From positions 3,968,001 through 4,032,000 of the forward strand of contig NC_092352.1 of the NCBI RefSeq assembly GCF_963676685.1: DNA of 64,000 nt, in the 5' to 3' direction. Shown in pieces: positions 13,342 through 61,200 of this stretch. Source of the DNA: Mytilus edulis (lineage: Eukaryota). The position numbers were made by a program, and so were the translations under genes. Each line of letters begins with the position of its first letter. Position 1 is the stretch's first letter. The notes beneath the pieces were generated by a model. It had not been told where the DNA came from. It did not search any database and was given only the letters and a program-made list of their open reading frames with translations.

Positions 13342-14512
13342 TACAAACAACTTAACAATCAGACGGACCAATCATTGCAATAATGGCAGATTATACACTA
13401 ATTTACTAGCTATAATGACAATTAAGCAAGTTATCCGTCAAGACACAACCTATTTCACGAAATAAAGAACATACAAACTAAGTTTATTGTTCACCTAATT
13501 ACAAACTCATTCCAAACACAAATAATGGCTGTTCGAATGATCCCGTTTTGACCCAATTTCGAAAGACAATCGAAGTCATGTGATTACCAAATTAGGGTAT
13601 TTTTTGGACAATTTTTGTTCAACTGAGATCAGTTGGTTTCCTCTTAATGATCCTTTCAAATTCATTCAAAGCATGATTACACGTGTGTACCTGTCAGAAG
13701 TTCTACATTAAAGGTTATTTCTTTAACACTGTTTAAATAATTTGTTTTTATCGGTACTAACATTGAATTTGTTATTGATAAATTAAAACTAAACTAAATA
13801 AGTACTGCATCCTGTCGATATTTGTATTTTGGCATTTTACATGTTTTCTCATACTGTAGAAGACGTCTTTACATTAAATCCATTGGATATGTATTTATTG
13901 ATATATTTATGTCTGAGAAACATCATATAATGTTGTTAGTTGTAATTGGCTTTGAACTAGCTTTCTGTAACTCTAGGTACTTTTTGGTCGGTACGGTGTG
14001 TCTTTAGTCCTTTTTAATTGTTTTTGTACTTTGTGCCGACCTGATGGGTTAAAACTTAAAACTTTTCAACTGATTGTTTATAGTTTATTCTAATGGTACA
14101 CTGTTGAACCAGATAAAAGTAGGGCCGAGTGCTTCCAAACATGTTTAACGCCGCCAAATTATGTATATGATTGTCCTACGTTAGCAGCCTGTGATGTAGT
14201 GGTTTTCGTTGGTTGTTGTCCATCATATTTGTTTTTCGTTTATTGGTTTGTACATATGTTTGTTTTCTCGATTGAATGGTTTAACATTTTGTCATGTATG
14301 AGCCATTTTAGCTCACTGTATGTGGTGTGATTTTTGCTCATTATTGAAGTTCGTATGGTGACACAAAATTACTATCATCTACATTATTTGGTGTCTGGTG
14401 GAAAATTGTCTCATTGGCAACCATACCACATCTTTTTATTTTATATTGATATGATTATAAGCTTTGTTATGATTGCAGTGTGTGTTTTGTGGAGTGCAAT
14501 TTTGAAGTGCGG

Positions 14513-16935: not shown

Positions 16936-17279
16936 TTTTGTAACGACATTTCATCTAAAGTTGACGACATTAGTTGAACTTCCACAGCGGAATGTTCTAG
17001 AGTTATGTATTTCAGAAAGCGCTTTGTAGTTGTTAACACTTGATGTTAACATCTACAAAGCGCTTTCTGAAATACATAACTTGATGTTAACATCTACAAA
17101 GCGCTTTCTGAAATACATAACTTGATGTTAACATCTACAAAGCGCTTTCTGAAATACATAACTCTAGAACAAAAGTTGTTAACATCTACAAAGCGCTTTC
17201 TGAAATACATAACTCTAGAACATTCCGCTGTGGAAGTTCAACTAATGTCGTCAACTTCAGATGAAATTTCGTTACAAAA
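16936..17279. repeat. ~100-bp-arm inverted repeat enclosing three tandem 41-bp copies of its own arm
   Basis: Arms are 16936-17038 and 17177-17279. The unit TTGATGTTAACATCTACAAAGCGCTTTCTGAAATACATAAC occurs at 17040, 17081 and 17122. Confidence 0.92.
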
Positions 17280-17446: not shown

Positions 17447-20400
17447 TTAACAATGATTGCTATATTCTGTACCGTCTGCGGATATTTGAATACCAGTAGT
17501 GTTATACGTGCTAATGTCGTTATGATTGTACGTATACGAGTTTAAATCAACTGCCCCTCTTACAACCCCTTCAGCATGGTCATATGTACCAATGTCTGCA
17601 TTATTGTACGTCCCACAATTTGTTTTGACAGAAGCACGGAATTTTAAGTGATTATACTCTGTTTTGATTGATTCTTCGTCTCTGATGCTGATTTCATCAT
17701 AGTGACTCTCTCCTTTCCCGCTATCTATAGTATCAGAACTATTTACTTCTGTAGTTGTTTGTTTTCTGTACTCTACTTCTTCTTGCTCTTTGCTCTTTTG
17801 TCTAAAAAAAGTACAATTTCTTATCAGTTAAGTTATTGTTGGAAATGATTGACTCAGTAATTTATCAGTAAAATCAGTTACTTGAAGGGACACATACAAC
17901 ACATTAAATACGTTTTCAATCCTTTTTTTACTTGTAATCTATGTACGAAATACTTTAAAAAATATCAATGTTAAAATACAACGAAAATGAATAAAGCCAT
18001 TACAATATCAATTATAAAAATGACTTTGTGGTATGATTGCCAGTTAGACAACTAACCAACTTTATTCTAGGATTAAACGCCTTTTTAAAGAATTTATTAG
18101 TATCTAAACTTTACCAATTCATGCACAAACAAATAAAAGTCCAAACGATGATCGAACGCGATGAAAAGTAGTTCGGTCAACGTCGTCTATCGAAAAATAA
18201 ATAACGTCAAGAGTCACAACCAGCAGTCCTTTCGACCAATCATATAAACCAACATAATGCTCAAGCAAATCCCTGACCTAGACCCTGAGAATTATCCAAA
18301 AAAATTGTTTGACCTAATATCTTAAGACTTACCTCCGTCTTACAAATATTGCACTGACAATGACAATCACAATACATACCACAACACCAACTAGTATGTA
18401 AGGAAGTACTGTAAATATAAAGCATCAACATATTATCTCCATCACAAATCAAATTAAAACATTTAACACAATCTTCTTTGGTTGTTTTGCTTAGTTTTTT
18501 TTTGGTTAAAAATGTGTTAAACGCTTTCGGTAAAAAAAATCTATGGAAATGCAAAATGGATAAAGAAAAGTCGTCCTTCTAATAATTTAATCGTCCTGAA
18601 AATGCATTTTTATATTTGCCACTGGACGTACAGCAAAAATCAATCAATCATGCAATTTTCTTTCTATAAATTACCCAATGTCATTATTCTAATTGAAAGT
18701 CGAAAATAAACTGATAACCCCATGGGGAAAAAGAAAATAGACTATAAGATGAAAAATAGTAAAGAAAACGACAACTAGGCTGAGCAACACAAACTCGACC
18801 AGGTTGGCTCATGTCACGCTATAGAAGGGTAAGCAGATTCTTCTCCATATGTGGCGCCCGTCGTTTTGCTCATGTAAGTACACACCAGGTGTGATAAGTC
18901 TTACTCATTTAGGAAAAAGGAGGACGGGGATTGTAGTTTCAACGATTGGACGTTTCCATCGTCATCTGTATTCGAATGGATATATCATAACGGCCAACCA
19001 ACTCGTGATGGCGTCCATACATTTTTCGAAGGGATGATTTTAACTTGTAATCCTTGTTAGAGAAAAATAAAACACGTGCTATGTTATTTTACTTCTTTTC
19101 TGCGGTACTGTGAACTATCATTCTACGTTGGGATCCATAGCATACTCTCTTATACCGAATTGATTTTTTATTAAAAAACACTTAATGTCCAATACAAGAC
19201 TACTTAAAATATCTGTTAAAGTAGATATTGAACGAGTTTATATTTTTTGTTCTCACACGGTATACATACAATTCAAAAGAGTATCCCAGGAGATCAAAAA
19301 GGAAAATGTGGTTATTAAAATGAAGGCATGAAAAACTAAATACATAGGGAGTGTTTAATATAAAACGGCCAGAAGATGCTTAACCGCAAATTTCATCTTG
19401 GGTAACTTAGCTTGAATATCTTACATAATTTAAAAACCATAGACACGGAAATAAGTTCTTGTATAATAATTGTGTGACCACTGCATATAATGCATATAGT
19501 TATGGCGTTCCATATAATTATCTACATATGGCAGTCATGGCGTTCCATTGAACAAGCGTTCACTTCATTTTAAATACCATATAGCTGTCTTGATTACAAT
19601 TGAACCAGCGAAAAATTGCAACCATGGATACAAACTCTCCTTGGTAATCAATTTTATATACATGTTTGTATCTTACATTTGTTTTTTCTATTAAATTAAT
19701 AATGTTAAAACTTCCTGCCTTGATGGAGCTCATAATCTAAGTTATCCCTTCTATTCTAAAAATCGAGTCATATTTTAATCAATAATTTGAAACTTGGGAG
19801 TACCAAAATAAAATACCAGGGAACTTTTATGGAATGTTATGCAACTGTCATACAGTGAGAGGTTTAGCTAGCTATAAAACAAGGTTTAATTACATATTTT
19901 ACAGAAAGAAATGCTTGTACCAAGTCAGGTTTATGACAGTTATTTTTTTATTCGTTTGATGTGTTCGAGCTTCTGATTTTGGTATTTGAGAAGAGACTTT
20001 CCGTTTTGAAATTTCCATGGAGTTCTGTGTTTGTGTTATTTACTTTTTATAGCTGTCTCATGTAAAACATCAAATAAACTGTACGAAGCGACATACTTTG
20101 TAACACTTGTGATCTGTCATTTGTGGACTGGTTTACAGTATCTTCTTTAACATTTCCTGAAACCATCAATAACAAATTAGAATATTTCATTAGACTTATA
20201 ATAATATTTGATAAATGATTAAAAACAACACTGGTAGAGAAACCAGGACTACACTTAATATCGCCGTTCAAGTTACCATACAGTGACATTTATTCGCTTT
20301 CATTTATACACTAATACAATTCACAGTAAATAAAAAAAAAATGATCAATAATTATTGTTTTTAGATATTGTTTTGAGATATAGTTTGTAATTGTTCACTA

Positions 20401-23400
20401 GATGAAATGTATGGCGAATTTATCATACTGCATATGAAAACCATAGCACCAAAGCTTATTTGCGAAATCTTTCTGTATTTATTAGAGAAAAGAAACTAAT
20501 TCTTTCACTTTGGACTTACCTTTGCAGTCATATGATATCTCAGCATATGGTTTGAAAGTGTTCGAAGTACAAGTACCAGCTGGAAGTGCTCCTATCGCAG
20601 TATTATAAAACGTACAATTATTTTTATCCTGGCATATTTTCTTTAGAGCTGTACTAATAGCCGCACTACCATTGCATCGTCCCGGGAGTATAGATAAATC
20701 GGGACATTCATTGGTGTTAAATCGACCATAATGTACAACAATAATGTCAATGGACTGGTTTCCAACACATGATACAACTGCACTTTTATCAAAACAGACA
20801 CGAGTTGTGTTCAAACCTGTAAAAATTGAGTTGAACAATAACAAAACATTAAGTTAAAAAAACTACTTTAAATGTGGAAAAGAAATTGCTTGGATTGTCG
20901 TAACGAACAAACATTTGTCTGATAATAGTATGGTGTACCTTCTGAATTTTCAAAGACTACAACTTGTAGAAAATACAAGTGCATTCTTTTAAATTGAGGT
21001 CCATTTGGTTGTCCGACGAACATGAGATATATGGCAGGAAAGACTTAAGAGGGGGCGTAGCTAGAAAGAAACAATGTGGAAGCATGTACCACCGAGCGGA
21101 GCGAGGCGAAAAAATTTTGGGACCCTTTTATGCAGAAAAATGTTTTTTTTCGGTTTTCGGTCATAGGACGGTTTAAAGAGGCACTATATGTAGTCAGGAC
21201 TTAAAAATATGATTGTAAAACTATTAATAAATCTTCTGAATAGAGTAATACATAAACAACACATATTTGTGATACAGAATTTACTCAAAATCGTCAAAAA
21301 TCTTCTCTTTGGGTCTAGGCAGAAACAAACTTTTCTATTACTTTGTCAATATTCACACGGAAATACCGATGAATATGCAGTAACTGCATGTCGTTGTTCA
21401 TTGTTGATCGTACATTTGTTTTCAACATACGTAGTACACTGATAGATCTCAATGGTAGCACTCGCAAGATGTTATAAACCAGCGTACATGTTCGGCATCG
21501 AGCGAACTCCCAATTAAATTCGTCAAAATGACATGCCAGGTCAGTTTCGTATGTCTCAGACAATGTTGAGATTTGTTCGTCTGTTATATTTCCTACAACA
21601 CGATGAAGCAGATACAGCACAAAGAAGCGATTTTCTGATAATACTAGACGCGACTCCACTCTCCAGTTCCCTTATCATATGGTCTATGAACGCCAAAAAT
21701 AATGAGACTTTCCAATACTGTTTTGGCGTGTTTGCAGGGTGATTGGCTCCGGTAGTCTGCCGACCACATCGCCTCGGCATATTTCAATTATATCGAAGGG
21801 ACCTGATAATTCTAATGCCGATTGGTACATCTCATTCGAAACTGATGAACCGTACGCTGTAAAATGTGCTCCAAAACTACATGTCTTACATGTCTTAGAC
21901 TGAGTATTACAACAATCAAATCTTGTAAAATATACAAGTTACTGTCCGATTTTGCCATCATCTCCAATAAAACTTTTATTTTGAAACCAAATGCCGTTAT
22001 TTAATGATATTTCATCAATTAAAAAAGTGACAACATAGGTGTTTCCTTTAACATTAAATTTATAAATTTTTATTTTGCCATTATTATGATTATTATTTTT
22101 TTTGCATGCCGAATCGATGTGCACGCAACTGCGTGTTAGCGTATAGGGAGCTACGCGCCTGTATAATCCTATGATTCAGATGTTTCTAGTTGTGTGGTAG
22201 TTTGTTTTGTTTTAAGCAATTATCTCGTACATACAGTTGTTTTAGCAGATCATATGGGTGTTTAAGTTGTTGTAAGATGTTATTGGATCCAAGCCATTCG
22301 ATCCATCATTAAATAAACTCATATAAGATACCAGGACTAAATTTTGTATATACGCCAGACGCGCGTTTCGTCTACAAAAGACTCGTCAGTGACGCTCGAA
22401 TCCAAAAAAGTTAAAAAGGCCAAATAAAGTTCGAAGTTGAAAAGCATTAAGGACCAAAATTCATAAAAGTTATGCCTTAATGCACTGTTCTTCTTGTATG
22501 TCTTATTCGGTTTGGTACACTAATTCAGTTTTTTTTCTATTTTCAGCTTCACGTCTTCCCAGATAATTGATTACGTAGAGATTGGATTGTTATTGTTCTA
22601 TAATAATTTCTGTATTCTTGACCTTCCTTTTTGCTTTTATGCTTTGTCGGAATGCCTTTTTGTGTTTTTTCCTTACATGTGACGTTGTTCTGTACTTATA
22701 CTTCCAATCATTGTGTTATTGTGTCATCGTAAATGTTTGTTTATATATTTGTTTGATTTTATAGTGATTAAGATAATGTTGACTGTTGTATCCCAATTTG
22801 ACATTTTTACCTATTATGTGTGTTTGTTTTGTTCACGCGTCGTGGTCAATATAATGGAACTGTCATACACATGAGAGGTTAAGCTAGCTATAAAAACAGT
22901 TTTAATCCACCATTTTCTACATAAGAAAATGCCTGTCCATTTGTTTCAATTTGCCTGAGCTTTTGATAATGCCGTTTTATATAACGTAATTTAATGCGAC
23001 TATCATATAAGTGAGAGGTTTAGCGCTACAAAACCAGGTTCAATCCACCATTTTCTACATTTGAAAATGCCTGTACCAAGCCAGGAACATTGCAGTTGTT
23101 GTCCATTCGTTTGATGTGTTTGGCATTTGATTTTGCCATTTGATTGGGGACTTTACGATTGAATTTTCCTCAGAGTTCAGTAATTTTGTGATTTTACTTT
23201 TGACTATTTACTTTCTGTTTTGGATTTTTCTTGGAGTTCTGTGTGTTTGTGATTTTACCTTGTATTACAAAAAGTCCTATCAGAATTTTAAGTATGCTTA
23301 TGTTGTTTGAATATCGTTGTTAGACAATAAGCATGCTGTGTTGTTGTAATGTTTGAGTATAAATTGACTTTTGATGTGTTTAGCTTTTCAATATCAACTA

Positions 23401-23766: not shown

Positions 23767-25262
23767 CCTTTCACAACTCCAATGAATAGACTTATTTCAA
23801 CATGACGTTACACAACACGAAAACAAATATCTCGTACGAGTACTCGAGAGTTTAATGTTACTAAGAAAATGTACTTTCACGCAAAAAAACATATTTTTTC
23901 AATTCTTATTTTATGAAGTACTTGGAAAGGGTTTTATATAATTTAAAACAATGATGACATACAAAAGTTTAACGTAAAGCTGAATATGAATATGTTTTAT
24001 TTTGGTATCCGGTGATTAACACAAAGCTTCCGAGATCATATAACTTAAGGATCCTCGTGCGTACGTCAGAGTGTAGCACTTAAAGAGGACTTAGATGAGT
24101 TTTAACACAGAATAATATTCAAAATAATAAATAGAAATTAGTCAATATATAGTTTTTTTAAATAATTTGCCAATTAAAACCATGTGACCAATGGAGTAGT
24201 CAAATAGATGGTTCGAAAAACCTCGAAATTAATTGAATTTTTATTAACAAAACTCGTTATTAGCACGGTTGATATTGTTGACGTTTAGTTTTTCTCTTAA
24301 TTGAAGTTCTTCTAACCATTTGGTTATAAACAATGCTATAATGAATATTCCTTTTGGAAAAAAAATACTATATACTGTATACTATTTCTTCTAGTGGAAA
24401 TTATATTCTAGATTTGTTTCGTTCACTTGGAATTGATATTGTATAGATATTTCTGTTTCATGACAATATTATATTTCCAGATGATAACAAATGTATCATT
24501 CAATGAGAAAAAGGGAGAGCTTATTGTAATTCCAAAAGACGGGGAATTTACAATCTCATTCTAAGTACCACAATAAAAATAGTATTATTAAATATTCGTT
24601 ATACATATATTACTAAAACGGATTAATCTATAAAGTCCTATACTAAACTAGCTATTGCTCAAACACGAGCCTTCGCTCTAAATGAGACCCAATCACACAT
24701 CTTAACATAATCCTACCAAATAACAGAACCATAACATAAAGGTCACAATTATGCCGATCTTGTCAGTAAGGGACTTCCCGTCCGACAATAAATCCTTGCT
24801 GAAGTCGGTCGATTAAAATTGTTTAAATTTTTAGTACGATGCTTCATGCAGTGTCGCTCATTAAAAGTTAAAGAATATTTCTCTCTGGATATTGAGGCAA
24901 AATTATTGCCCATATCCAATATACCCTTATCATTCAAGTTACAGTCCATATGTCTGCTCGTCATACCATTCCACATATGTATCAGAATTTTCTTTTTAAA
25001 CTGTTTATTTGTTCCCGTCCTGAATATATATAGCAAACAATCAATCAAACAAAATATTTTTGATAAATTGTTGACCTTCATAACTTGCCGTCTGTCTAAA
25101 GAACACACATCTCCAGACAAATTTGGTCTTAAATTCGAAAACGGGTCTCCGATGTTCATATAAAAAGTAAAACTAAAATACTGAACTCCGAAGAAAATTC
25201 AAAACGGAAAGTTATAAATCAATAGGCAAAATCAAATGCTAAAACACATCAAACGAATAGAA

Positions 25263-25362
25263 AACTGTCATATTCCTGACTTGGTACAGGCATTGTTAAA
25301 TGTAGAAAATAGTGGATTGAACCTGGTTTTATAACGCTAAAACTCTTAGTTGCATGAAAGTC
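25263..25362 (-). ncRNA. Twister-like motif, partly degenerate
   Basis: The minus strand has AACCAGGTTCAATCCAC...GCCTG-TACCAAGT-CAGG-AATATGACAGT. The 5' half is mutated. Confidence 0.5.
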
Positions 25363-27555
25363 GCATCAATTTGCATTATATTTATAACGATGCCTGAACA
25401 AAAATATGTTTCTGACAACTGTTTAAAGCTTTTATTAATTAAAAAAAAACCATTCAATTTATAGTCAGTTTAAATCAAACACAACTCTTCAATCTATGGT
25501 TCAGTTTTTTAAAAGCATCATTTCGAACTTTAATTACCACCAAATAACATTACACTACATTTTACGGACAATTAAAGACCATTTTCTATATTGTAAATTC
25601 GAAAAATGAACAAAATGTGTATATCTCATTCAGACCCTCCTACTTGAGATCATATGCTACTTAGGTATACAAAGTTGTATTGTTCGGTTTTTCTTATTGT
25701 TATTCTCCTCTTTTTCTTCCTTCCTCTTCCGCCAATTTTTAAAATGAACATGTCTGCACCAAAACCTCTTGTATGATTTACTTAAGGTTGCACGATATGT
25801 AAGAGTCATATGTCAAAAGTACAATCAGGGGTGTATTTGTGCATTCGGGTATAAAGAGAGGTTCTTTGGGGGCCAAAGGTAGACGGGTTTACTATACTTT
25901 TTTTCCTTTATTTTTCAAATTATCATATTTTTAAAACAGTTAGTGATAGACACAATATTTATAATTGATAAATAGAGTTAGTACCCAGGAGTCACTTATG
26001 CATATTACTTAACTGAAACAAATTTTTCTGCACTTTACCCAATGTCCGCCGACCTTGGGATAAAATGTGATTATTGAAACTTTGCTTGGGATAATTCGTA
26101 AAGTTCAGCACCTTTTGACAATAATTTATTGTCAGTTTTGTCCTCTTGGTTATCATGTATTTGAGAATGAACACAAGTTAATTCATCATCGTGACATTCC
26201 ATTGCAATTCAATTAAGGTTTCAATACGAATTTTGTCTTTTCAAATCAAAGTCTCCAAGAGAAAAGGTGAAGAAATCTAACATAAATTGGTATGTAAAAT
26301 CTTTAATTACTTTTTAGCTCACCTGGCCCGAAGGGCCGAGTGAGCTTTTCTCATCACTTTGCGTCCGGCGTCGTCCGGCGTTAACTTTTACAAAAATCTT
26401 CTCCTCTGAAACTGCTGGGCCAGATTTAACCAAACTTGGCCACAATTATCATGCAGGTATCTAGTTTAAAAAATTTGTGGCGTGAACCGGCCAACCAACC
26501 ACGATGGCCGTCATGGCTAAAAATAGAACATAGGGGGTAAAATGTAGATTTTGGCTTATAACTCTGATACCAAAGCATTTAGAGCAAATCTGACATGGGG
26601 TAAATAAAGTAGTATACCGCTGTTCAAACTCATAAATATATGGACAAAAAACAAAATCGGGGTAACAAACTAAATCTGAGGGAAACACACCAAACATAAG
26701 AGGAGAACAACGACACAACACTACAATGTAACACACACAGAAACGGATAAAATTGTTTCTCAGATGAAGATCTATCTGCCCTGAAATTTTCAGACAAATC
26801 TGACAACCAGTTGTTGGGTTGCTGCCCCTGAATTTGCAATTTTAAGGAAATTATACCGTTTTTTGGCTATTATCTTGAATATTATTATAGATAGAGATGA
26901 ACTGTAAACATCAATAATGTTCAGGAAAGTAAGATCTACAAAAAAGTGAATATAGCTAAAATGGTCAGTTGACCCCTTATGGAGTTATTGCCCTATGTAT
27001 TAATTTTTTACCAATTTTCGTAATTTTTTGTAATCTTTTACAAAAATCTTCTCCTCTTAAACTACTGGTCCAAGTTAAAAAGTTATTGTGAAACTGCCTA
27101 TTCTAGAGGTGGCGTGAATCAGATGTGGATACTTAAAAATTCCAAAGATCTTTTAGAGTACATACAATCTAACTCTCTTTCATCTTGTAACAGTATTAAA
27201 ACATTTGACTTCTCTACTCTTTACACAAGTATTCCACATTCCAAACTTAAAGACAAATTAAAAGAGTTGGTATTACTTTGCTTCATAAAAAAGAATGGCC
27301 AACGTAGATACAAGTATCTTGTCTTAGGGAGGGATAAATCCTACTTTGTAAAGAATCACTCTGATTCAAACAAAAAATTCTCTGAAACCGATATTATCAA
27401 GATGCTTGATTTCTTGATTGACAACATATTTGTTACGTTCGGAGGACGTGTTTTTCAACAGACTGTCGGCATACCAATGGGAACAAACTGTGCCCCTCTA
27501 CTTGCTGACTTGTTTCTTTATTATTATGAGGCTGACTTCATGCAGGAACTTCTTA

Positions 27556-28418
27556 ACATTTTGTTCATTTTTCGAATTTACAATATAGAAAATGGTCTTT
27601 AATTTCCTGTAATTAGTTAATACTTCAGCTTTATCATGTACATCTTTTGAATATTCATTTTATTAAATTTACTGTTTGCAAAAGTATAAATTACTCTAGA
27701 TTATAGGGATTTTCTGGTAACTTAACGGAAAACCCTTGCCGTTTTTGGCACAACCTTTTTGATCTTTTGGTCCTCGATGCTGTTCAACTTTGTACTCGTT
27801 TCGGCTTTCAAACTTTTGTATCTGTGCGTCACACATAGGTCTTGTGTGGACAAAATACACTTCTGGCGTATTAAAATTTTGAACTTGTTGCCTTTTGTTG
27901 GCTGTTGTTCGTGTGATTCTTTGTCAATTGTGTTCTCCAATTTATTTATATTGTAGTCCTGTGTTGTCATTTTGATGTTATATTTCACATGGCCATAAAA
28001 GTGCGAGGTTTGGCATGCCACAAAACCAGGTTCAACCCACCATTTTTTCCTTTAAAAATGCCCTGTACCAAGTCAGGAATATGGTCATTGTTATATTATA
28101 GTTCGTTTCTGTGTGTATTACATTATAACGTTGTGTCGTTTGTTTTCTCTTATTTTTGAGTGTAAATTCACATTGCGATAAGACGTGTCACGGTACTTGT
28201 CTATCCCAAATTCATGTATTTGGTTTTGATGTTATATATATATGTTATATTTGTTATTCTCGTGGGATTTTGTCTATATGTGTTACATTTTAGTGTTATG
28301 TCGTTGTTCTCCTCTTATATTTAATGCGTTTCCCTCGGTTTTAGTTTGTTATCCCGATTTTGTTTTTTGTCCATGGATTTATGAGTTTTGAACAGCGGTA
28401 TACTACTGTTGCCTTTAT
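27556..28418 (+). mobile_element. Non-autonomous retro-repeat inserted in the RT gene (degenerate hammerhead module, twister motif, tail)
   Basis: Interrupts ...GAACTTCTTA|GGAAGAAAG..., with TTA at both junctions (27553-27555, 28419-28421). Confidence 0.75.
27989..28088 (+). ncRNA. Twister-like motif, P5-type permutation
   Basis: Closing stem ATGGCCATA/TATGGTCAT; AAAAGTGC-GA-GGT; hairpin TGGCATGCCA; CAA-CCC-ACC; P3 ATTTTT/AAAAAT; CCTG-TACCAAGT-CAGG. Confidence 0.65.
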
Positions 28419-30272
28419 TTAGGAAGAAAGATAAGAAGTTAGCAATATCCTTTAACTCTACTTTCCGCTATATAGATGACGTTCTTTCACTAAACAATTC
28501 AAAATTTGGTGACTATGTGGAACGCATCTATCCCATCGAATTGGAGATAAAGGATACTACAGATACAGTTAAGTCAGCTTCATATCTTGACTTACATCTA
28601 GAAATTGACAATGAGGGTCGGTTGAAGACAAAACTTTACGACAAAAGAGATGATTTCAGCTTTCCAATTGTGAACTTTCCATTTCTAAGTAGCAACATTC
28701 CAGCAGCACCTGCATACGGGGTATATATCTCTCAATTGATACGATATTCCCGTGCTTGCATTTCCTATCATGATTTTCTTGATAGAGGGTTACTGCTCAC
28801 AAGGAAGCTATTAAATCAAGAGTTCCAAATGGTGAAGTTGAAATCATCCCTTCGTAAATTTTACGGACGCCATCACGAGTTGGTTGACCGTTATGGAATA
28901 ACCATTTCACAAATGATATCGGATATGTTCCTCACGTCGTAACTACAATCCCCTTCCCTTTCATGAATTTGACCTACCGAATTAGACTATTTACCGGATT
29001 TGTAATCACATAAGCAACACGACGGGTGCCGCATGTGGAGCAGGATCTGCTTACCCTTCCGGAGCACCTGAGATCACCCCTAGTTTTTGGTGGGGTTCGT
29101 GTTGTTTATTCTTTAGTTTTCTATGTTGTGTCATGTGTACTATTGTTTTTCTGTTTGTCTTTTTTATTTTTAGCCATGGCGTTGTCAGTTTGTTTTAGAT
29201 TTATGAGTTTGACTGTCCCTTTGGTATCTTTCGTCCCTCTTTTAAACCATACTTGGCCATAATCATCATTGAGGTATATTGTTTAAAAAATGTGTCCGGT
29301 GACCCTGCCAACCAACCAAGATGGTCGTCATGGCTAAAAATAGCACATAGGGGTAAAATGTAGATTTTGGCTTATAACTCTGAAACTAAAGCATTAAGAG
29401 CAATTCAGACATGGGGGTTAAATTGTTTTGAAAGTCATGATCTATTTGCCCTGACATTTACAGATGAATCCGACAACCGGTTGTTGGGTTGCTGCCCCTG
29501 AATTGGTAACTTTTAATAACTGATAATTTTCAGTAAATACAGTAAATTTAAAATACTGATAACCGATAACAGTAATTTCATTTATCTGACAGAAGACAGA
29601 AAACACTCAATTAAAAAAAAACTAAAAAAAAAAAACAGAAGTCAAGGACAATTAATTTCATAACAATGTCAATTTAAAAAACAACAGATAATAGCTTATT
29701 ATTCAATTATATGTAACAGTTAACATGACATGTATTTTCAACAGTTAACAAAAGTTAGAAAATGTTTTTAAACATCTTAACAGAAAAGATCGTGCCGCCT
29801 CCCTCATAAAAGTATTTCTATTGGAATTATCATAATAATTTCAAATGAGAGGGATCTTTTAATTATTTTTCGCAGTATTCCTATACATGGACTTAATGTA
29901 CTAACTGTTAATATAGAATGTCCTTGTCCTATATGAATCGGAAAAAATGAAAATAGGTATGCTACCAAAATAAAAATAATAATAATAACAAAACCCCATT
30001 ATTTCCTAACACAGATTTTCAAATATCTGTGTTCGTATTGACATTTGAAGACAGATATAATTAGTTATCAATAATTCCAGTATCTACTAGTATATCTTTA
30101 CTTATTAGAAAATATTCATCGATTCTTTAACTCACCTGATTGGTTTCCTAGGTAACGAATTCTTCGATATGTGATGTACCTGGTTGTAATGACAATCAAG
30201 TTAATAGATATATAGGTTAGTCACTTAGTCAGACGGAAAAACAATGTCAGTGCTGTTATATCCAGGAAAACT

Positions 30273-40518: not shown

Positions 40519-41408
40519 GTAAAAGTCTTATAAAATCTTATTTATTTTTTAATAGTTTTTGAGAACTTTAACTGGTCAATGATAAAGCTATGAAAAACCA
40601 AGAGAGATCGTTTTACCGCTAATATCTCATAAACAAGCACATTGACCCTTATATATTTTTGGCTCTTTTTATTCCTCAATTTATCCCTTATCAATATATA
40701 CTAGTGTTATAGAAAGCTATTTATTTTGAAACTGAGCAGCGAACTTCCTGAAAGGAGTTGCATTCTTTTTAAAAGTATTTAGATTTTATAATTAAAAAAA
40801 ACGGATTCTAGAGGCTAATATGATATTTATGAATATCTAACAACGAATAAAGAACCGGTTGATAACTTCACATGCTTGTGTACTATGTGGTCTGAAGAAG
40901 TTGATAAAGATAATGAGGTACTCCATTACAGGCGACACTTTCATATCAAGGGAACAGTAAGTCAGTTTTTTGAGATAAAAAAATGTCGTTTCTTTCCCCA
41001 CTCCATCTCCTTCGCTGTCAGCCGTCAGAAATGAGTTCAAATGAATAAGTTTTTAATACTTACACAGTTATATAGGTAATGTTATATGAGAGACATGTGC
41101 AAATAGAAAGCACACATTTATACTTATAGAATTGTACGACAACAGTCATACTACACGGTTGTGCCACGTCTATCTAACTTTACATTGGAAAATAAAGGAC
41201 CTTGGCTGCCATCCATACCCTCATACATATGCATGTGTGTATTTTAACATGTCAATATACCAAACATTATTCTGGCTAGAAGTATGCTCGTCTTTTCTCT
41301 TACTTATAATACGTAAGATTCAGATTACCGAACGTCAAGAACTCTTTTGTACATGAAGGTACGTAAGTCGTGTGACGTCGGGGCAACTATTTGTTTACAT
41401 TGACGACA

Positions 41409-43681
41409 ATGGACTCTGATTTTAAGAATAAAAACGTCCCGGAAATCAAACAGTTCTTGAAAAACAGAGGTGTTAAAACAACGGGTTATAAAAAGAGTAA
41501 ATTAGTTGAATTAGCTGAAGAAGCGGAATTACAAAAGATTCCCGCCTTTGAACCCGATAATTACATATTCGCAAATAAAATACGGCGAACTGTAGATGGT
41601 GTCGAGTTGCCGCATCCCAAGACTGTTATTGATTGGTCTGATGATTTAAATACAATTCCAATAATTGAAGCGTTTGATGTTAATCATTATTTAAAAAACA
41701 TTTGTAACTGGACAAATGAACGTTTGAAAGGCTATAAAAATGACAACAGTTACCGTCTTCATTCTAATGGACATATCCGTGATGTTAGGCAGTCAAAATT
41801 TCACAGCGATATACACTATGTAAAAGCAGCATGTGTACCAGAAGAGAGACAGTCTGCTGACCCGTACGAAGTTTGGATAGTGGTCCTATTTGATGGGTCA
41901 ATACATTCAGCAGAATGTACATGTGTGGCGTAAGTTCTTACATGAATAATCCGAGTCCGAGGGTGTGGGTGCCGATGGGGTTTACAGAATAGAGAATAAT
42001 GGGGTGTTAAAATATAAAGAATAACGCAAGAAAATAATGAATAGATTGGTTAAAAAGTATGTTGAAAACAGAAAAGAATAATAATATCAAGAATACAGTT
42101 ATCAAGTACATGTAATTGTAGAATTCTGATTAGCCATATCTGTTTAAGATAAAAATGAAAGTAATGAGCCAGAAAAATTAAATAAAGATTAAAAAAGATG
42201 AATAATCACATCAAGAATTGCCAAAAAAATGTGTATTTTTATTATGTCATCTGTTTTTGATTTTTAACCTACATGGAATACCATATTATCAGTTCACTCC
42301 AAATTACTGTAAAGGGCACATAAAATTAATTTCCATTTTTTTCTCTCTCAGAATTATCACCTTCAAAAAAGAGATGCAAACAAGCGGGGATAGTCAATGT
42401 TGATTTTTCAGAGACAAAAGATTTTTTTTTTCAAGCAACTTTTTGTTTTTATTTTTTAAATATAGGGAAACATTGTTTTTTGAAAATGTTTAATCCCTCG
42501 AGCACTTCTAAAAAATGAATACTTCAGTGTATATAATTATTTTACAGTGGTGATGGAACATGTAAGCACGTGGCAGCACTCCTGTTCGGGATGCAAAGAT
42601 TTTGTCAGGATTTGTCCGATAGATCGGTTATTTCTGTTACTGACAAGGCTGCTAAATGGGTTAACCCAGTCAGAACATCAGCTCCAGTAAAAATAACCTC
42701 TTTAGACCTGAGGAGTGAGCCTACAGGACAACCACCAATCAAACCAACAAGTGACCATTATAGGCCTTCTTGTCATAACATGACACCACATGCTGTAGAA
42801 AAAGAAATGCTTCGGTTAATAAAATCAGAAAACTTACCAGCATGCGCAGCATATGTTCTGTCAGATAGCTCTGGTTCGGAGTATGATTTTGAGTGTTTGC
42901 CTGTCAACATACTAGATCTAGCAACACAATTTAATAATGATGATTCGTCAGATGATTCACTTGAATCTTTTATTGAGCACATACATAGAAATATCCCTGA
43001 TAATTATTTCACTGATATATTCGAAAAGACTGTCAGTCAGAGTGATAGTGATTTGTGGTTTTATCAGAGACATGGCAGAATAACAGCTTCCATTTTATAT
43101 AGTTGTCTTCATTTTTCAGGAAGAAACCCTGATGGCCATCTAGTCAAACTCATTTTAGGTCTTACAAACAGTGTTAATTCAGACTTGCCTGCTTTAAGAC
43201 ATGGAAAAAAATTTGAACATGTTGCTAGAGAGTCTTATATCTTCATGACAAAAAAAATTTGCATGATAATTTAGAATGTAAATTATCTGGGTTTGTAATT
43301 GACAACAACAGTCCTTACTTAGGTTGCTCTCCTGATGGTTTACTAGAGTGTAAATGCTGTGGACAAGGTTGTTTGGAAATAAAATGTCCATATAAATTTT
43401 CAGAAGAAACACCAATCAATGCTGCTTGTTTAGACAAAACAAACTTTCACATAGAAAATGATACTCCACTTATGAAGAGAAATGACACATCTCCGTATTA
43501 CTGTCAAATTCAATGTCAGCTTGCAGTTACTAAACGAAAATGGTGTGATTTTGTATTATTTACTTTTAAAGGTGTACATCATGAGAGAATACCATTTGAT
43601 GAACAATTTTGGTCTAATGTTTTTCCAAAACTTGCATCATTCTACAGTTCATATGTTCTACCAAAAATTCTGCTAGTATAG
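41409..43681 (+). CDS. Transposon accessory protein: SAP-like motif, SWIM zinc finger, YqaJ/lambda-exonuclease domain (~551 aa if the frameshift is repaired)
   Basis: Exon 1 is 41409-41929 and exon 2 is 42548-43681. The splice creates the SWIM motif CTCVAGDGTCKHVAALL. YqaJ motifs: GRITAS, HGKKFE, LGCSPDG, LEIKCP, YYCQIQCQL, WCDFV. A single -1 frameshift sits at the A8 run 43250-43257. Confidence 0.85.
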
Positions 43682-44233
43682 AGTCAGAATTACACATGTA
43701 CCAGTTGAATACTTTGTTTGAAGTTCATTACAATTCACAATATAAAACAGTGATAAAGTTTGGTTATATAATTTAATTTGATTAAACATAACTAAAATAA
43801 ACAATATTAAACATAATAAATATCATCTTTTATGTTAAGACAACTTATGATATATGTCGCTTTCAATATTTAAAACATTATCAGCTGATAATGTAAATAG
43901 TCTCTATTCTTCTAAATTTAGAAAAGACAACTCTTTCAAATGGGAGATAACCTACTATTGTGCATAGACGTGTACATCTGTTAGTTTTGTAATTTTGAAT
44001 ACATGATAAAGCCATATTTCCACTACTTATCGGTTTTTGAAAGAAAATTTTAGAACAGAATAATTCTCTTACTTAAGCTGTTGATTTTTTTTAATCAAGG
44101 AATATAATTTTTAGTATTAACATGAATCATAAAAGAAAAAAAGAAACACTGGATAAAAAATTGCCAATCATTGCTCCTTTAATTAATATATATGTCAAAT
44201 AAATTTCAAATGATTTATTAAACAAAACAAGTT

Positions 44234-47200
44234 TTATAACTTTTGAACTAATGGTTTCATCAGGTTACAAAAAAATCCTGCAACCTTAAGAGCCTGATTA
44301 GCAACAGAAAGTGAATTTATTGGCATAACACCACTTAAGAATTTATAAGATTTCAGTCTCTGGATTGATCTTTCTACATGTATTCTCAAAGAGGCTATGG
44401 ATTTTGATTCCTTAATCTCCTTTGCCGTAAGACATCGTCCTTTTCCATGTTTACATGGTCTGGTAAATGGTGGCATATTTAAGGTGGCACCTTTTGATAA
44501 TAATAAGTCTTTGATTAAAAAACCTCTGTCAGCCATTACATGATCCCCCTTTTCAATCAGATCAATGAATCCACTTCTTTCAGTAATGCTCCTATCAGAA
44601 ATGTTACCAGTCCATAAGTCAGATATAAACGAAAAAGCTCCATTTGGTGTTATACCTACAAGCGTTTTAAAAGTGTTCTTTGACTTGTAATTTGACCACG
44701 TTTTTGACTGTGCTGTTGGGTTTCTTGGTCTCTGCACATAAAATTCAGTAGCATCGATGATTACACGAGTGTTAGGATATTTTCTACGAAATGATAGAGG
44801 CATATGTTTTTTAATCTTTTCCTTAGATGGCCATTTAATAAGTGGTCCTAAACATTGTGCCATTAAAGATATCCAAGTCGTGAAAACCCTGCTAATTGTT
44901 GACTGTGAAACACCAAACAAAAGAGACAACACATATGTGTTTAGTCCTAGCCTCAACCTCAAAAGAGTTATAACAAATTCTTCAAAAAAAGTCAACTTCC
45001 TTGAAGCACCAGGTTTTTTCTTATTATTTACTTGCCATCTTTTACCGTCACTTGAGTCAGGACCCATCCAGTATTTCATTTTTGAAGCATGTCCTTCTAA
45101 TAATTTAAAAATTCCAAAAAGCATTGAAATACTTGGCAGTCCAAGAAAACATTTAACATTACTATTTGATTTAGTCAACTTTTCAACGAGTTTGTCCTTT
45201 AGCAGTTCATCTGTATTATTAAACTTCTCATTTAAAACTTTATTTTCCTCTTTGGTAGCATGTAGTTCAACTTGTAGCAATTTAACTTGCTTCCGTAGCT
45301 GGTTATTATCTGTCTCATATCTTTGACATTTTTGCTGTGAAAAAAAGTAATAATTATAAATACATAAATCAATGCAAACAATTTATGAAATTGTTTTTGT
45401 ATTTTTTGTTTACTTAAGTCAAGTTGGTAACAATAAAACAATACAGTTGTATGATTGATTGATTTTTGGTTGCTTAACATTCAGTGGCAAATATTTCATG
45501 CATGTTCAGAATGAAATACAGTTACACATGTATATGGTATAATGACTAAAAAAAAACATTTACATGTAATACTATATTTCAACATGTTCAAGTTGGATTA
45601 CAAATTTTAAAAGTAAATATATATTTAGTAAAATGTTTGAATAGATCATATTTAATATTGATGTATTAATTTGAATATAAAAGCACCTTGCTTCTTACAT
45701 TATATAATTTTTGATGTATGAACTGCCATCTAATAAATTAAAACGAATCAATTTTTGATTGAAATACATATTATTTCTATAGTTCATAAGAATAAGATTA
45801 AAAAATATCTTTTACATGGCTTTTGACTCTTATATCCAATGGAGGAATTTTCAATATCAGATAAAATCCAAATTAATTTCGTACCTCTAAGGTGTTGCTA
45901 TTTTCAATTAACATTACACATTTTTCCTCAATGGAGACATCTTCACTAACTTCAGTGCTAGTGCAATAAGTGTGGTCCAAACTTGGCTTTTCAATGTAGG
46001 AAATTACTGAAAGTAAGTAAATATGTACTATTTAAATTAGAATTATTTGACTACAATCAGTCAAGATCATAGACTGTTTGATTTAAAAGAATTAAACGTA
46101 CGAAATGTGCATGTAATTTAGAAAGTTGAAGTACAAAAATGTCATGAATGTAGGTAATCATTTTATAAATGGGAACTAGAACCATATGTTTAAGAGCCAT
46201 AACTCTCAGAACACATATCTTTTCTACTGGACCTTTAAGACTGTCCACCAGTATACCAGTTGATGGTGTACATGTAGTGTGCAGACAAAATTAATCTGAG
46301 ACTCATATTTATCTTTGCAAAATACTTTTTAAATTTTGTTTTTGAAGTTTAGTTTATTTTGTGATAAAATAATATTGGCAATTATTTTATCTTGAAATTG
46401 TGAAGATAAATTGTTTAAAATTTAATATATGACTTTTATATTTGTATTTTAATTAGAATTATATTATAATTGTTATAAAGCATTGTTTACTAATTGATTT
46501 TATGTGGTCATTGACTGATTAATCACAATTGTTATTGTTAAATTAAATTATGAAAACCATCCATGCATTTTAACTATAAATATATATATATGCCTATCAG
46601 AACATGCAGTCATACAATAGACTGACCCCTATGTTCCTTGGTTCAGTTACATGTACATGTAGCTCCCTCTGATTTAACAGTACCATGGTGGCACACTGAC
46701 TATTTAGTCATGACATCATTTTTTATTAGTTTTACTTAAAATTACCTGGAATATCTGGTATGTATTTCTTTTGTCTTGGTACTTTTGGCAGTTGTGAAAC
46801 TGTAACAATGTTTGCTGGTCTGTAAAATATATTAAAAAAAATAAATATATATATATCTTCATGTGCATACAGTCCAATATTTAAAAAACACTGTTCGTAA
46901 ACATGAAAACTTTTTTTTAAGTTGTCAAAGCTTATTATCTTGGAGCCTCGTAGACATAAGACGGGTAATTTCCGCCTCTTATAAACAGATAAAAGGGACA
47001 AACATCTGTTTTCTACCCCCCCCCCCCCCCCCCCCAACACACACACACAATTTTCTTTTACTGTTTCATCATAATAGGCAAACAAGACAAAAATATATTG
47101 AAGAATGAAAAAGGAAGAGGACACTAATTTCAACTATTTGTCACTTACTGTGTTGTCAATATCAATTGTTCAATGGGACGTAAGGTACTGTTCTTGGTGT

Positions 47201-47510
47201 CTCTTGGTGTTCCAGTTTTGTAGTTGTTGTAGGCAAATAGGGTTGGGACTGCATTTTCCTTCGTAGGTCTTCCTTCAATAAAATGACGGGAGCAAAGTGC
47301 ATGCCAGTGACAATTTGGGTCGGGATTGAACCCTTCCCTTCTTATCTGAGACAACCAGAGCTTCCTTAGTTTAGGATTCTTTATGACTGAAGGAAGTACA
47401 TGAAAGTCGACGATACATCCATTTAAAATCATATCAGGATACTTTACAGCATTATGTTTCTTTCGTGAATCGTTGGAGCAACCCTCCGCTATGCAGTGAA
47501 AATTCACCAT
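44234..47510 (-). CDS. THAP-domain Harbinger-like DDE transposase (THAP, DHTY motif, coiled coil, HTH_Tnp_4, DDE_Tnp_4; 552 aa)
   Basis: Exons 47510-47149 (THAP: CIAEGC, W, LCSRHF, AVPTLF), 46819-46746, 46006-45885 and 45334-44234 total 1659 nt in one open frame. The catalytic motifs IIDATE, ADRGF and RIHVER are intact. Confidence 0.92.
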
Positions 47511-49233
47511 GCTTCTTTTCGAAGCTTTACCGCTCAAAAACTATCATAATAATTTTACATGACGTACATTTTATACATGTGTTTTGACACAAAACATGCC
47601 CATAATAACGCAAAATCTCGCAGTAAACGTTATCACTAGGGCGAGACTAACGGTAACCTCAAATACGGAACGGATAATCTGAATCTTACGTATTGAAGCA
47701 TGCTTAGCAGAGAAGCAGTTCTGTATATAACCTTGTGTATTGTATTTTCTACCTACTAGCATGTTTTTCCGAATTTCCCTTTTATATGTTTGGACATAGA
47801 CATGTTTTATATTTTCAAAGTCACTAGTATACTTGTGCATAAAATAATTGTATCTGAAATATATTTCGATCTCTAATTTATTTTTTATTTGAGTTCATTA
47901 GATCGATGGCACCTTTGTTGACAAAAACAAGCGTCTTGTGTTTTCGACCTATCTAAGAAACGGGTCTAAAGTCGGAAATGACATGTCGTACAAATCCGGA
48001 ATAGGTTATAAACTTGAAACCATAGTTTATATCAAAGTGTTAGAGGCGATCAAATTTATGACTTGATGAATTAAATGCAGTAACATATATACAACTATAA
48101 GATATAAAATATTATTTTGATATCTTTTTTAGACAAGTTGTACACATTTCAAAATGAGGCACTTTGGAAGCCTTGTGTGGTCTTGTATATATTCATGTTT
48201 TTGTTTAATACTTTAGTTAATGCATTGTGAAGTGAGGTTGGTGAGTATTGTTTTTAATTTCCACTGCCAGACTTTTTTTTCTGTATATAAAAATTAACTG
48301 ATATTTTATTTTTTGGTAAAAAGCTGTAAAGAGCATGCATATTTCCATATTCAAATTACCTTTAAGTATTAAATCTAACCACATGACAGTCATGTGACTT
48401 AATGACCTTGAAGGTAACTTTGCATGCAAAAAGACCTCTGCCATTTTTTTAGATTTTTTTTTTATAACAGATCTTTTCTTTTGGAAGGTTAAACTAGTAT
48501 TAGTGAAATTGTACAAAAATTGATATCAAATAAAAAATCGAAAATACTTAATTATAATAACTTTATTTGTAAAATCTTCACCCACACGTGTAATCATTTG
48601 CTATAGTTACTAAGTATAGCAGCCAAATATGATGTCACACGGGCGTGAAAGTAGAATTAGGTCGAAAACGTAAGACGGTCGAAAACACAATACGAGACGA
48701 TAATACCAATTTTCTCGACCTATCATCCTGGATGTCTGGTGTGAATTATTTATAGCTAAATTATAAGATATTTATATCTGTTTATAGAAAAATGATTGCC
48801 AATGAGACAACTCCCCACAAGAGACTAAAATGACATAGAATAGTGCAATGATCTATAAATTTGTATGGATATATATGTGCCTTGTCCAAAGCCATCTTAT
48901 CTTCAGATTTTAGAGGATAATAATGCTGTTTTCATCATGTTCATATTAGATTTGAACAATTTGCTTATTTAGAAGATAACTGTATTGTATTTTAAGCTCA
49001 ATTGATGCCATGTAAATAAGTGACGTTATCCAATCAAAATTAACGTTACAAACGTTGTTGCATCAGAATACCCTGTTGATGCAGGATGACATGTTATGAA
49101 GCATACAATATCCAGAAAATTTGGTTATCTGAAAATAATAATCATGCATGATAATAAGGACTTTGTCACCTGCCTAGATACATTTGTGTCATCACATGTA
49201 ACTATATTCCAGAAGTTTGATATTGCATATACA

Positions 49234-58200: not shown

Positions 58201-61200
58201 TGTGGCATGTGCCACACTTTGAGAAAATGTTGTATGATCAAGGACAGTTGTTGGTGGCTTATGCCACAGCCTATCAGGTATGTATACTAGAAAGAAGAAA
58301 AAATAATTGTTAAATATGTACCTTTTATCAGGTTGTCTGCATTTCTTTGGAAATAGAGAAAAAAAATTGAGTCTTGCAAAGTTTTTCTCCTGTTTTTGTA
58401 GCTAGAACAAATAAATTTAATATTCATACAAGGTACAAATATTATGTTTATTCTGCAATTTAACATTTATGCTTAAATCTTTAATTTTTAACTACCCAAC
58501 CATTGAATTTGTTTCTAAGTGACTAACATGCAGACTACTATACACAATACTTGATTAATTGTGACATTTACAGTGACTTAAGGTTTAATTTGTTTCACAG
58601 AGCTATGGTCATGGATAATTCTTTTTGTACAAAGTCAGATTTTAATCAATTTGTATTTTTAATTCAAAATGCTGAATTACAATATGAGTTATCTATCTTG
58701 GTGCATAATATGATAAGAAGACGTCGCGCTCTGAAAAGTAATCTACAGTCTTAATTGTATATTTTCGTAAGAGTCAAAGTTTTTTTAATTTATTTATTTT
58801 TTAATTCATGATTGTATATATCTGTAAAAGTCAGTTACAGTTATTTTTTTTTTTTTTATTTATTTTTTTTTTAATTCATTTCAATCATATTCTTTTTATT
58901 GACTATTTTACTGAGAGGGTTTTAATAAAACAAGATTACTGCGTTTTATTCTTCGCAATCTGTTTATATAACCTCTTTAAAATATATTCTTTTTATCACA
59001 TATCATTAATTTTTTATGTCATACTTAATTTTGTCATATCTATTTTTAAAAAGACATTTTTTTTTTTTTTTTTTTTTAACTACTTACAAATTATGTTAAT
59101 ATATTTTTTTTTATGATGTGTAATATCCGGATAATTTTAAACATTTATAACATTTTATTATGTTTTTATTTTGTATTTGTTAAATAGATATAAATTTGTA
59201 TATATAGTGTCTCATAAGCCTTTCTAGGCTGGGTATTTGTCTTATTTTATTATTGTGCAATGTATATTATATAAACTGTATAAATAATCTGTAGACAAGT
59301 ATGTGACACTCTTAATAAAATAAATTATTATTTACTATAACAACCCCTTATTTTTGTTATATATATTTGAATCACAGATAAATCTGTTAAAAACTTTATT
59401 AAGGGGATCTGTTTAATTTGAATGCTTTAAAAATTTGTAATTTAAAACAGAAAGATGAATTTGATTACAGATAACTAAAGATGAAACGTTTGCTGATGTT
59501 GCCAGAGATATAGTGGAATATGTGACTAGAGATTTACAAAGTCCTGTAAGTTAATTAAAAAATTCCTGTAGATATAATAATAATGAGATGTGGTATGAAT
59601 ACCAATGAGACAACTATCCCAGAGAGTACAAATGTCTTGGATTTAATTAGGTATACGTTACAGTTCATCCTTCAACAATGAGAAATCTGAAACTGTATAG
59701 TGAGTCATAAAAGGCCTTTACATGCCAAAATGTGAATCGAATGAACATAGAAATTCAACAACCAGATTTATGACAAAAAAAAACCCAAAACCTCTATGAC
59801 AGACAGCAACCAATGACAGCCACTAGATGGAGACCCACATGAAAGAAGCAGTGTTTAACATGTTTATTAAACATCATGAACATATAGCTAATAAAATTGA
59901 GAAAGGAAATAGGGAATGTTTCAAAGCGACAACAACCAGACCATAGAGCAGACAACAGCCGAAGGCCAACAAAGGGTCTTCAATGTAGCGAGAAACTCCC
60001 GCACCCTTAGGTGTCCTTTAGCTGGCCCCTTAAAAAATATGTATACTAGTACAGTGATAATGAACGTCATACTAAACTCTGAATTATTCACAAGAAACTT
60101 AAATTAAAAAATCATACAAGACTAACAAAGGCCAGAGGCTCCTGACATGGGACAGGCTCAAAATTGTGGTGGGGTTAAAATTGTTTATGAGATCTCAACC
60201 CTCCCCCTATACCTCTAGTCAATGTAGAAAAGTAAACGCATAACAATACGCACATTACAATTCAGTTCAAGAGAAGTCCGAGCTAGCTAAGCTAAGTATA
60301 TATGTTTGCAGTCAAAAACATAATTATTAAATGAGCTTTTTGAAATAAGTTGTAATAATGTGTATTACAAATAATAATAATTCTGCTAATAATGATGGAT
60401 ATTATTAACAAGTCAATGAAAACTGAGATCTTTGTAAATGTTAAAATATTTAATATAATCAATTTTGTAGAATTAGATATTAAAAAATACCTCTGAAAAA
60501 CAGATAAAAAAAATCATATCTTAGTATTTGCAAGATGTTCTTTTCTACAACCAAATTCTTTTTTTTCTCAGGAAGGTGGGTTTTATAGTGCAGAAGATGC
60601 TGATTCCTACCCAGTAGATGACACTTCAGAGAAAAAAGAAGGTGCCTTCTGTGTTTGGACCTATGAGGAGATACAGTCTCTTCTGAAGGAACCAGTAGAA
60701 GATAAACCAGACATTAAAATGGCTGACATATTTTGTTTTCATTACGATATTAAAGAGGATGGGAATGTTGATCCAATGCAGGTAGATATAATAAGTTCTC
60801 TGAAAACTAATTAATTAATGACACACATAAACATATCTATAACCTATGCTACAAATCAATGCAGAGCAGAGGAGGGCCGCTAATCACTTCAAATTAGCAA
60901 GGCTTGATAAAAAAAAAATTGTACTGTTTTTCCAACTCTTAGTCCATCAGATTTTCAGCCCTTTTGGGATTCTGTAAGCTTATAAAAAAATTATTTATAT
61001 TTGATCACAGTTGTACTTATTCATATGATATAATGTGAAGAAAAGATTTACATGATAAGTTATATAGATGATTGTATATTGCAAAATTGGATAGTGTAGC
61101 TTTTGCACTAGCTGTGTATATTATGTACTGTGTTCTTTTTTTTCTCTTTTATTTATTTACTATTCTCATTATTAATTCAAGTTATGAAAGAAAAACCACA

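Follow-up and report, generated by a model that had tools for sequence, protein, structure and literature searches.

Palindromes replace P1 in a P5-permuted twister-like RNA from the 3' pseudo-LTRs of bivalve Naiad retroelements, which may act as a dimer

The 3' pseudo-LTRs (pLTRs) of bivalve Naiads, which are Penelope-like retroelements (PLEs), contain a twister-like RNA that is opened at P5 and that likely self-cleaves, and the palindromes that replace its P1 would pair two RNAs into a two-fold symmetric dimer; we give this reading a probability of about 0.6. The analysis is centred on a 64,000-nt stretch from the 1.37-Gb genome of Mytilus edulis (the window, to which all plain coordinates refer), in which the P5-permuted motif lies at 22997-23098 on the forward strand, within the 3' UTR/pLTR of a Naiad.

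The motif is built in the order P5, P2', GA, T1', linker, N^AA, P2, T2, P3, P4/L4, P5', which is the order of a twister opened at P5. In the copy at 22997-23098, all parts of which are on the forward strand, the P5 5' strand (22997-23008), where the permuted ribozyme is open, has its pairing partner at 23087-23098 and is partly decayed. The segment 23011-23020 comprises the bulged P2 3' strand, the GA with the putative general-base G at 23015, the T1 3' strand (23017-23019) and a U (23020). Palindrome 1, TAGCGCTA (23021-23028), occupies the place of the P1 3' strand and is separated by three bases from palindrome 2, AACC-A-GGTT (23032-23040; 4 bp, one nucleotide and 4 bp), the last base of which is the U preceding the cut-site nucleotide. 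C^AA comes after palindrome 2, so that the segment 23041-23048 holds the predicted cut site C^A at 23041/23042, which we placed by alignment to the consensus line of Rfam twister-P1, together with the second A, the P2 5' strand and the T2 5' strand. The P3 hairpin of 7 bp (23049-23069), whose complementary arms differ per family, is followed by P4 and an 8-nt L4 that provides the partners of T1 and T2 (23070-23085). These positions bear out the original prediction, which had placed two palindromes between T1 and the cut site, and the three other palindromes that it listed were located in the window copies at 19837, 27977 and 60234. Since T2 has an A-C mismatch and P5 is frayed in this copy, and T2 mismatches reduce cleavage in natural twisters according to PMC11662667, the copy at 22997-23098 is itself probably decayed, as far as can be judged from its sequence.

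The carrier of the motif is a 5'-truncated Naiad 3' UTR/pLTR copy of subfamily A1 (22978-23205, forward strand) with 85-88% identity to genome copies. Across 30 loci, copies had a fixed 3' end and ragged 5' ends, and an RT was found upstream on the same strand at 42 of 188 loci, compared with 3, 6 and 2 in the other three arrangements; the ragged 5' ends and the upstream RT ruled out a Helitron or MITE terminal hairpin. At locus L093, a full element lies behind a 5'-truncated copy as a partial tandem, with two motifs 4,034 nt apart. The L093 element encodes an N-terminal GIY-YIG, CxC, DKA and RT and in this agrees with the marks given for Naiads (N-terminal GIY-YIG, CxC, DKA) by Craig et al. 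2021 in PMC8557442, where these elements are said to 'lack canonical HHR'; the motif copies further show the Naiad traits of 5' truncation, a fixed 3' end and partial tandems that form pLTRs. The family A2 motif, read by eye, also ends the record that precedes Naiad_Bpla in the supplement of PMC8557442, which by file order is Naiad_Mgal. Among the 19 of 54 Naiad consensus 3' ends that were examined by eye, five contain the twister with both palindromes (Mgal, Bpla, Mphi, Scon and Mmer), nine a different palindrome-bearing motif (type 2) and three hammerhead core strings in rearranged order; one further consensus stops before the region and one is without a recognisable motif. A blind sample of 60 evenly spaced 10-kb stretches (600 kb) gave 66 matches in a profile search, 43 of them spanning the core, from which we extrapolate to about 10^5 motif copies genome-wide. 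A Pfam search with three ORFs gave no match. As a separate observation, the family C Naiad ORF at L093:4127-6973 contains four in-frame TGA codons, two of them at cysteine positions that are occupied by selenocysteine in Naiad_Scon, and past its TAA stop there is a SECIS-like hairpin; PMC8557442 reports selenoprotein Naiads from clams and spiders, not from mussels.

Because Rfam does not call the motif, the twister core was tested indirectly. The Rfam scan of the 64-kb window gave no twister match at E<=1, the Rfam twister P5 model matched neither the window nor a family C copy, and no gathering threshold of an Rfam twister model was reached in the window, the family C copy or metagenome loci. 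The family C copy gave a weak local match to twister-P1 (RF03160; 12.9 bits, E 6.6), and the RF03160 consensus line agrees with family C at the cut site, T2, L4 and GAGGG. A metagenome scan for the P4/L4 16-mer returned 121 stretches, 80 of which were obtained as loci, and 10 of these were chosen by eye. Seven of the ten, which are unpermuted, match RF03160 with E values from 2e-8 to 0.044, all below the gathering score, and the family form of the P4/L4 16-mer sits inside all seven matches; the three permuted loci gave no RF03160 match. Several of the unpermuted matches sharing the 16-mer (L297, L305, L339, L348, L319, L312 and L295) have a broken P1, as in RTE-type 5' twisters, and such loci are a possible source of the permuted form.

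In twisters, the first A after the cut site serves as the general acid, and AA was present at the cut site in 15 of 15 aligned rows and in all five published Naiad consensuses that were read. The general base of the twister is G45, numbered after the rice twister (PMC6154101), and GA was found in 112 of 125 parsed copies when the parser left GA free. The same parser imposed T1, and for T1 only the variation between families counts: ACC/GGU, CCC/GGG and CCU/AGG occur, with complementarity kept through A-U/C-G and C-G/U-A changes. T2 consists of A-U or G-U plus C-G in the genome families and, by eye, of CC/GG in Naiad_Scon and Naiad_Mmer. P2, P3 and P5 vary on both sides between families, the P5 arms being different yet complementary in A, B, C and F, and P4 is 98% paired, with two-sided changes in the published families only (Mphi, Scon and Mmer, by eye). 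MAFFT misregistered T1 and palindrome 2 between family groups, and both were counted by script or by eye instead; family F is absent from the parsed-copy table owing to a parsing ambiguity, and its data come from other parses. Altogether, 13 of 13 lineages (A1, A2, B, B2, C, D, E, F, F2, a Bpla-like group, Mphi, Scon and Mmer), whose RTs are only 46% identical, retain L4, the two pseudoknots, the catalytic G and the two A's.

Other parts of the core are less regular. P2, which the original prediction had described as short and bulged, indeed has only 3 bp and a bulge in families A, B and B2, whereas it reaches all 4 bp in C, D, E and F. In young family B, the most recently active one, a C-C mismatch interrupts P2 next to the catalytic G, and T1 is down to two Watson-Crick pairs plus U-U in Naiad Mphi, Scon and Mmer. 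An in-register P1 is absent from every family; out of register, a G-U-rich cis P1 of 2-4 bp can be drawn in each, and a linker of 19-22 nt, fixed in length, stands where P1 would be. The loss of a normal P1 is thereby upheld, and the core positions, the covariation and the agreement with the RF03160 consensus sustain the twister identity of the motif. We conclude from these sequence features that the motif is very likely a twister by ancestry and fold and that the Naiad variant is likely to be catalytically active.

Evidence for pairing between RNAs comes from palindrome 1, which begins 1-2 nt past the conserved U that follows T1 and which, at a length of 6-10 nt and with variable sequence, is present in every one of the 13 lineages, which range from mussels to clams. 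A Watson-Crick arm of at least 4 within the first 12 linker nucleotides was found in 90 of 124 distinct parsed copies, a set in which 34 identical young copies carry weight, whereas control windows of equal length from other parts of these elements gave 0 of 124 and 1 of 124, and shuffling gave 101 of 2480. In the blind sample, six of seven parsed copies contained the arm, as against 3.1% of 49,980 background 12-mers. The palindromes are conserved among copies across the genome, and the statement that every copy carries one held for six of the seven window copies that span the linker (8-10 nt, one via a G-U pair) and failed for the old copy at 14121, which has none.

The central tetramer is self-complementary in all 13 lineages and occurs in six kinds (GCGC, CTAG, CATG, GATC, GTAC and TGCA). 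With one in 16 tetramers being palindromic, the five independent symmetry-keeping changes have a rough chance of ~1e-6, a figure that is indicative only because the lineages are related. Against almost the same background, the innermost pair is swapped (AT versus TA) between families B and B2, and it also differs between C and E and between F and F2; these changes are telling since the innermost pair cannot form within one strand, as in a hairpin. In a 15-row alignment, in which three F-type rows are off-centre, four of the five palindrome-1 pairs vary on both sides, and two-sided changes fill 13 cells compared with 6.0 +/- 1.7 after shuffling (0 of 500 shuffles reach this value); the count of covarying pairs alone was not significant (223 of 500 shuffles). 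Palindrome 2 is likewise symmetric with varied centres, either odd (C-A-G or C-T-G) or even (CATG, ACGT, CCGG), and covarying forms of it are present in published Naiad consensuses; taken by itself it is weak, and tests within single families mostly fall short of significance (p 0.012-0.58). The predicted folding energy is 0 to -0.9 kcal/mol for the linker alone, -9.3 to -18.8 kcal/mol for the palindrome-1 self-duplex and -1.6 to -8.8 kcal/mol for that of palindrome 2. Given that palindrome 1 is symmetric throughout the 13 lineages, that its innermost pair covaries and that a second symmetric tract precedes the cut, these sequence patterns make it likely that the palindromes pair two RNA copies. 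Their suitability for RNA-RNA pairing, as proposed in the original prediction, is thereby upheld, and they reside in the pLTR of a PLE, an element class with known dimeric hammerheads.

How a dimer could serve cleavage is suggested by the place of the palindromes in the fold. P1 normally stacks on T1 (PMC6154101), and a palindrome-1 duplex between two RNAs would take over this stacking below T1 in both cores. Running back alongside, a similarly long palindrome-2 duplex would then bring the cut site of each strand to its own core. The partner could be the other pLTR copy where an element forms a partial tandem, at a distance as in L093, or another transcript. In predicted minimum-free-energy folds of the monomer the T1 strand is sequestered, by the 5' half of palindrome 2 in families A and B and by the cut-site strand in C-E, and dimerisation might free it from this trap and make the two cuts faster or synchronised; the trap is a product of folding programs that ignore pseudoknots. 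PLE hammerheads with a palindromic stem III are reported to cleave as dimers (PMC6765202), and release of unit-length RNA and its circularisation have been proposed for them (PMC6765202, PMC7761336). By analogy, two cuts in a Naiad transcript could release a unit-length RNA for circularisation, and the circle could template partial-tandem insertions.

A partner directly upstream of the motif, on which the original prediction had counted as a tandem partial copy, proved to be an older insertion in a nested arrangement; its palindrome is a different one, and L4 is missing from it. This older A2-like copy (22743-22977, forward strand; palindromes at 22882-22889 and 22893-22903) is interrupted by the A1 copy. 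Its portion at 22743-22936 is without L4, P4' and P5' owing to a deletion of ~28 nt at 22936, and the rest of its 3' tail lies at 23206-23262 (forward strand). The A1 copy was inserted into the older copy, as the tail of the latter resumes after 23205, and consecutive reference positions (203-247 and 227-280) flank the A1 copy on either side, which represents nesting rather than a tandem unit. In the blind sample, 54 of 66 copies had no same-strand neighbour within 500 nt, and a retrozyme-like short tandem was rejected given these solo copies; the 12 with neighbours exceed a Poisson estimate of ~3.5 and, by eye, are mostly of different subfamilies.

Further copies in the window include a young subfamily B copy at 27560-28421 (forward strand; motif at ~27989-28088, predicted cut at 28033/28034), which interrupts another Naiad's RT and is flanked by RT frames. 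All 40 of its 40 matches listed were 100% identical, and judged by this identity family B is very young. A decayed A2 copy was found at 19833-20050 (forward strand), a decayed A1 copy at 25160-25403 (reverse strand) and a subfamily C copy with a 4-bp P2 at 60127-60234 (reverse strand). A genome query from the old copy at 14121, meant to find a new family, retrieved mostly family D, and another query brought up mainly a single decayed local array. The young family B element nested in the RT of another Naiad spans window 27024-29244; taken with the nesting of the A1 copy and the surplus of closely spaced neighbours, it hints that Naiads insert into Naiads. Decayed motif copies with broken T1 or palindromes also occur as passengers in larger repeats or local arrays (L215-L223, L400-L407 and L420-L433), and such passengers raise the counts of non-conforming sequences.

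None of 30 young copies was inserted starting at the cut site, the nearest start being 83 nt upstream. A raw RNA run over the family B copy showed no pile-up of read ends at 28033/28034, which is a weak test because the library was fragmented; more presumed-sense reads lay upstream of the family B motif in the same run, and loose read ends fall at 28421, the end of the copy. Natural twisters are described as 'essentially impervious' to P1 defects in PMC11662667, PMC8501958 also finds P1 dispensable, and since P1 defects leave the cleavage of natural twisters unreduced, a monomer may suffice. Strict dependence of cleavage on the dimer is therefore doubtful, and we place it at somewhat less than even odds.

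The dispensability of P1 in these two studies favours the alternative that the motif cleaves as a P1-less monomer twister and that its palindromes are a separate RNA dimerisation signal, like the palindrome of retroviral dimer initiation, which would tether two template RNAs, or the two ends, for ligation, RNP assembly or template jumping. In line with this, nine other Naiad consensuses and copies from the same genome keep a 10-nt palindrome directly after a 6-bp helix strand in a motif that has neither the catalytic G nor the AA of twister, and the retention of an equivalent palindrome by these nine consensuses points to an independent function of the pairing. We nevertheless consider a separate signal unlikely, because the palindromes lie inside the catalytic fold at the P1 position with tightly fixed length, palindrome 2 stops one base short of the scissile nucleotide and the monomer folds bury T1. 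Less probable still is a twister-derived fold that has lost cutting and acts purely as a structural or dimer module. The missing read-end pile-up and the absence of insertions beginning at the site would fit such a fold, as would the P2 mismatch in young B and the weakened T1 of Mphi, Scon and Mmer, but the catalytic G, the A's, L4 and the pseudoknots are kept in all 13 lineages and active twisters tolerate P2 defects (PMC11662667), which makes loss of cutting improbable. That the palindromes are small intramolecular hairpins or a weak cis P1, with no dimer, is very improbable: 3-bp hairpins and the shifted P1 of 2-4 bp can be drawn, yet hairpin loops need no symmetry and the central four bases are self-complementary and covary throughout the lineages, with a predicted hairpin energy of ~0. 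Palindromes are common as DNA binding sites, and template-switch correction of quasi-palindromes is known, but a symmetry at the DNA level can be set aside as hardly credible, since symmetry stays constant as the sequence varies, family D has a G-U-closed form as its consensus, control windows of the same elements are non-palindromic and the position is fixed relative to the RNA pseudoknot.

The type 2 motif deserves separate description. It was found in the consensuses CGi, Sglo, Olur, Tgra, Pmar, 1/2_Skow and 1/2_Pfla, in 12 copies in Mytilus edulis loci, and in the window as a 3' UTR motif at 29023-29105 (forward strand). In its layout, a 6-nt strand that pairs downstream is directly followed by a 10-nt palindrome of variable sequence and then by a hairpin with a conserved loop; it has neither the twister catalytic G nor the AA, and it gave no Rfam ribozyme match. 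A search of the genome for its DNA, in which very common words are skipped, yielded no match. On sequence grounds, type 2, which bivalves and hemichordates have in common, may represent either a ribozyme class not yet described or a dimer module without catalysis. A bolder reading can be offered only tentatively: Naiads would not be devoid of ribozymes, bivalve Naiads would carry an obligate-dimer twister that cuts only when two same-family pLTRs meet, the two side-by-side intermolecular helices in place of P1 would act as a family-specific pairing code, and type 2, from oyster and hemichordate Naiads, would be a further self-cleaving class of the same design.

Hammerhead-like motifs were also seen. 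The 3' ends of Naiad_Plae, Naiad_Amil and Naiad_Ppla contain, by eye, hammerhead core strings with GAAA before CUGANGA beside stems, possibly permuted hammerheads that type I descriptors miss. A minimal type I hammerhead lies at 22352-22395 on the reverse strand, ~600 nt from the motif, and matches RF00163 at the Rfam gathering score; it is the sole RF00163 match of the window, and no hammerhead core was found in the motif's own pLTR. A link between the two was rejected given the opposite strand, and this hammerhead probably belongs to a different PLE. Elsewhere in the window, the region 41376-47540 contains ORFs that we take to resemble a DDE transposase (44234-45382, reverse strand), a YqaJ-like nuclease (43229-43681, forward strand) and a THAP-like protein (47145-47540, reverse strand), and a near-perfect long inverted repeat with 41-nt units and chance miRNA-family matches lies at 16936-17279.

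A literature search, with subscription journals outside its scope, found no published description that links twister to Naiads or to this motif. The word 'twister' is absent from the main text of PMC8557442, which reports no canonical ribozyme for Naiads; PMC11662667 assayed bivalve twisters, mainly of type P1, and its supplement could contain related sequences; and PMC10085705 describes a search for other twister permutations that was without success. The success of hammerhead-less Naiads, which dominate many bivalve genomes, has been used to suggest that PLE ribozymes may be mere passengers (PMC8557442). If our reading is true, it would show that a dimer-linked cut has been selected convergently in the replication of PLEs, at the same pLTR position and with the same exchange of a stem for a palindrome in an unrelated fold. 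The candidate ribozymes of a single genome would grow by ~10^5 copies that escape current models, and RNA engineering would gain a natural two-copy-gated twister. A Naiad twister would also bring the circular-template model within reach of a direct test on RNAs of 100 nt.

Compared with known systems, the Naiad motif resembles twister type P5 (Rfam clan CL00120) in its P5-open order and in N^AA, GA, L4, T1, T2, P2, P3 and P4. Unlike known twisters, it has no closed P1 hairpin and instead the 19-22 nt double-palindrome linker, its P2 is a bulged 3-bp helix in half the families and its T2 contains A-U, G-U or C-G. With the twister variants of Perere-3 (Schistosoma) and other RTE elements it shares a defective or absent P1 and a location on a non-LTR retroelement (PMC8501958; PMC7761336). 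These twisters are of P1 type, lie at the 5' end of the element and have insertions that start at the cut site, whereas the Naiad motif is permuted, lies 130-390 nt from the 3' end and showed such a start in none of the 30 insertions. Minimal type I PLE hammerheads were reportedly described by Cervera and de la Pena in 2014 and by Lunse et al. in 2017. The Naiad motif differs from these hammerheads in ribozyme class and fold and in having two palindromes rather than one, and its host clade, unlike theirs, is reported to be without canonical HHRs (PMC8557442). It is like them in its pLTR location, in the replacement of an essential-looking stem by a palindrome and in the proposed dimer between pLTR copies.
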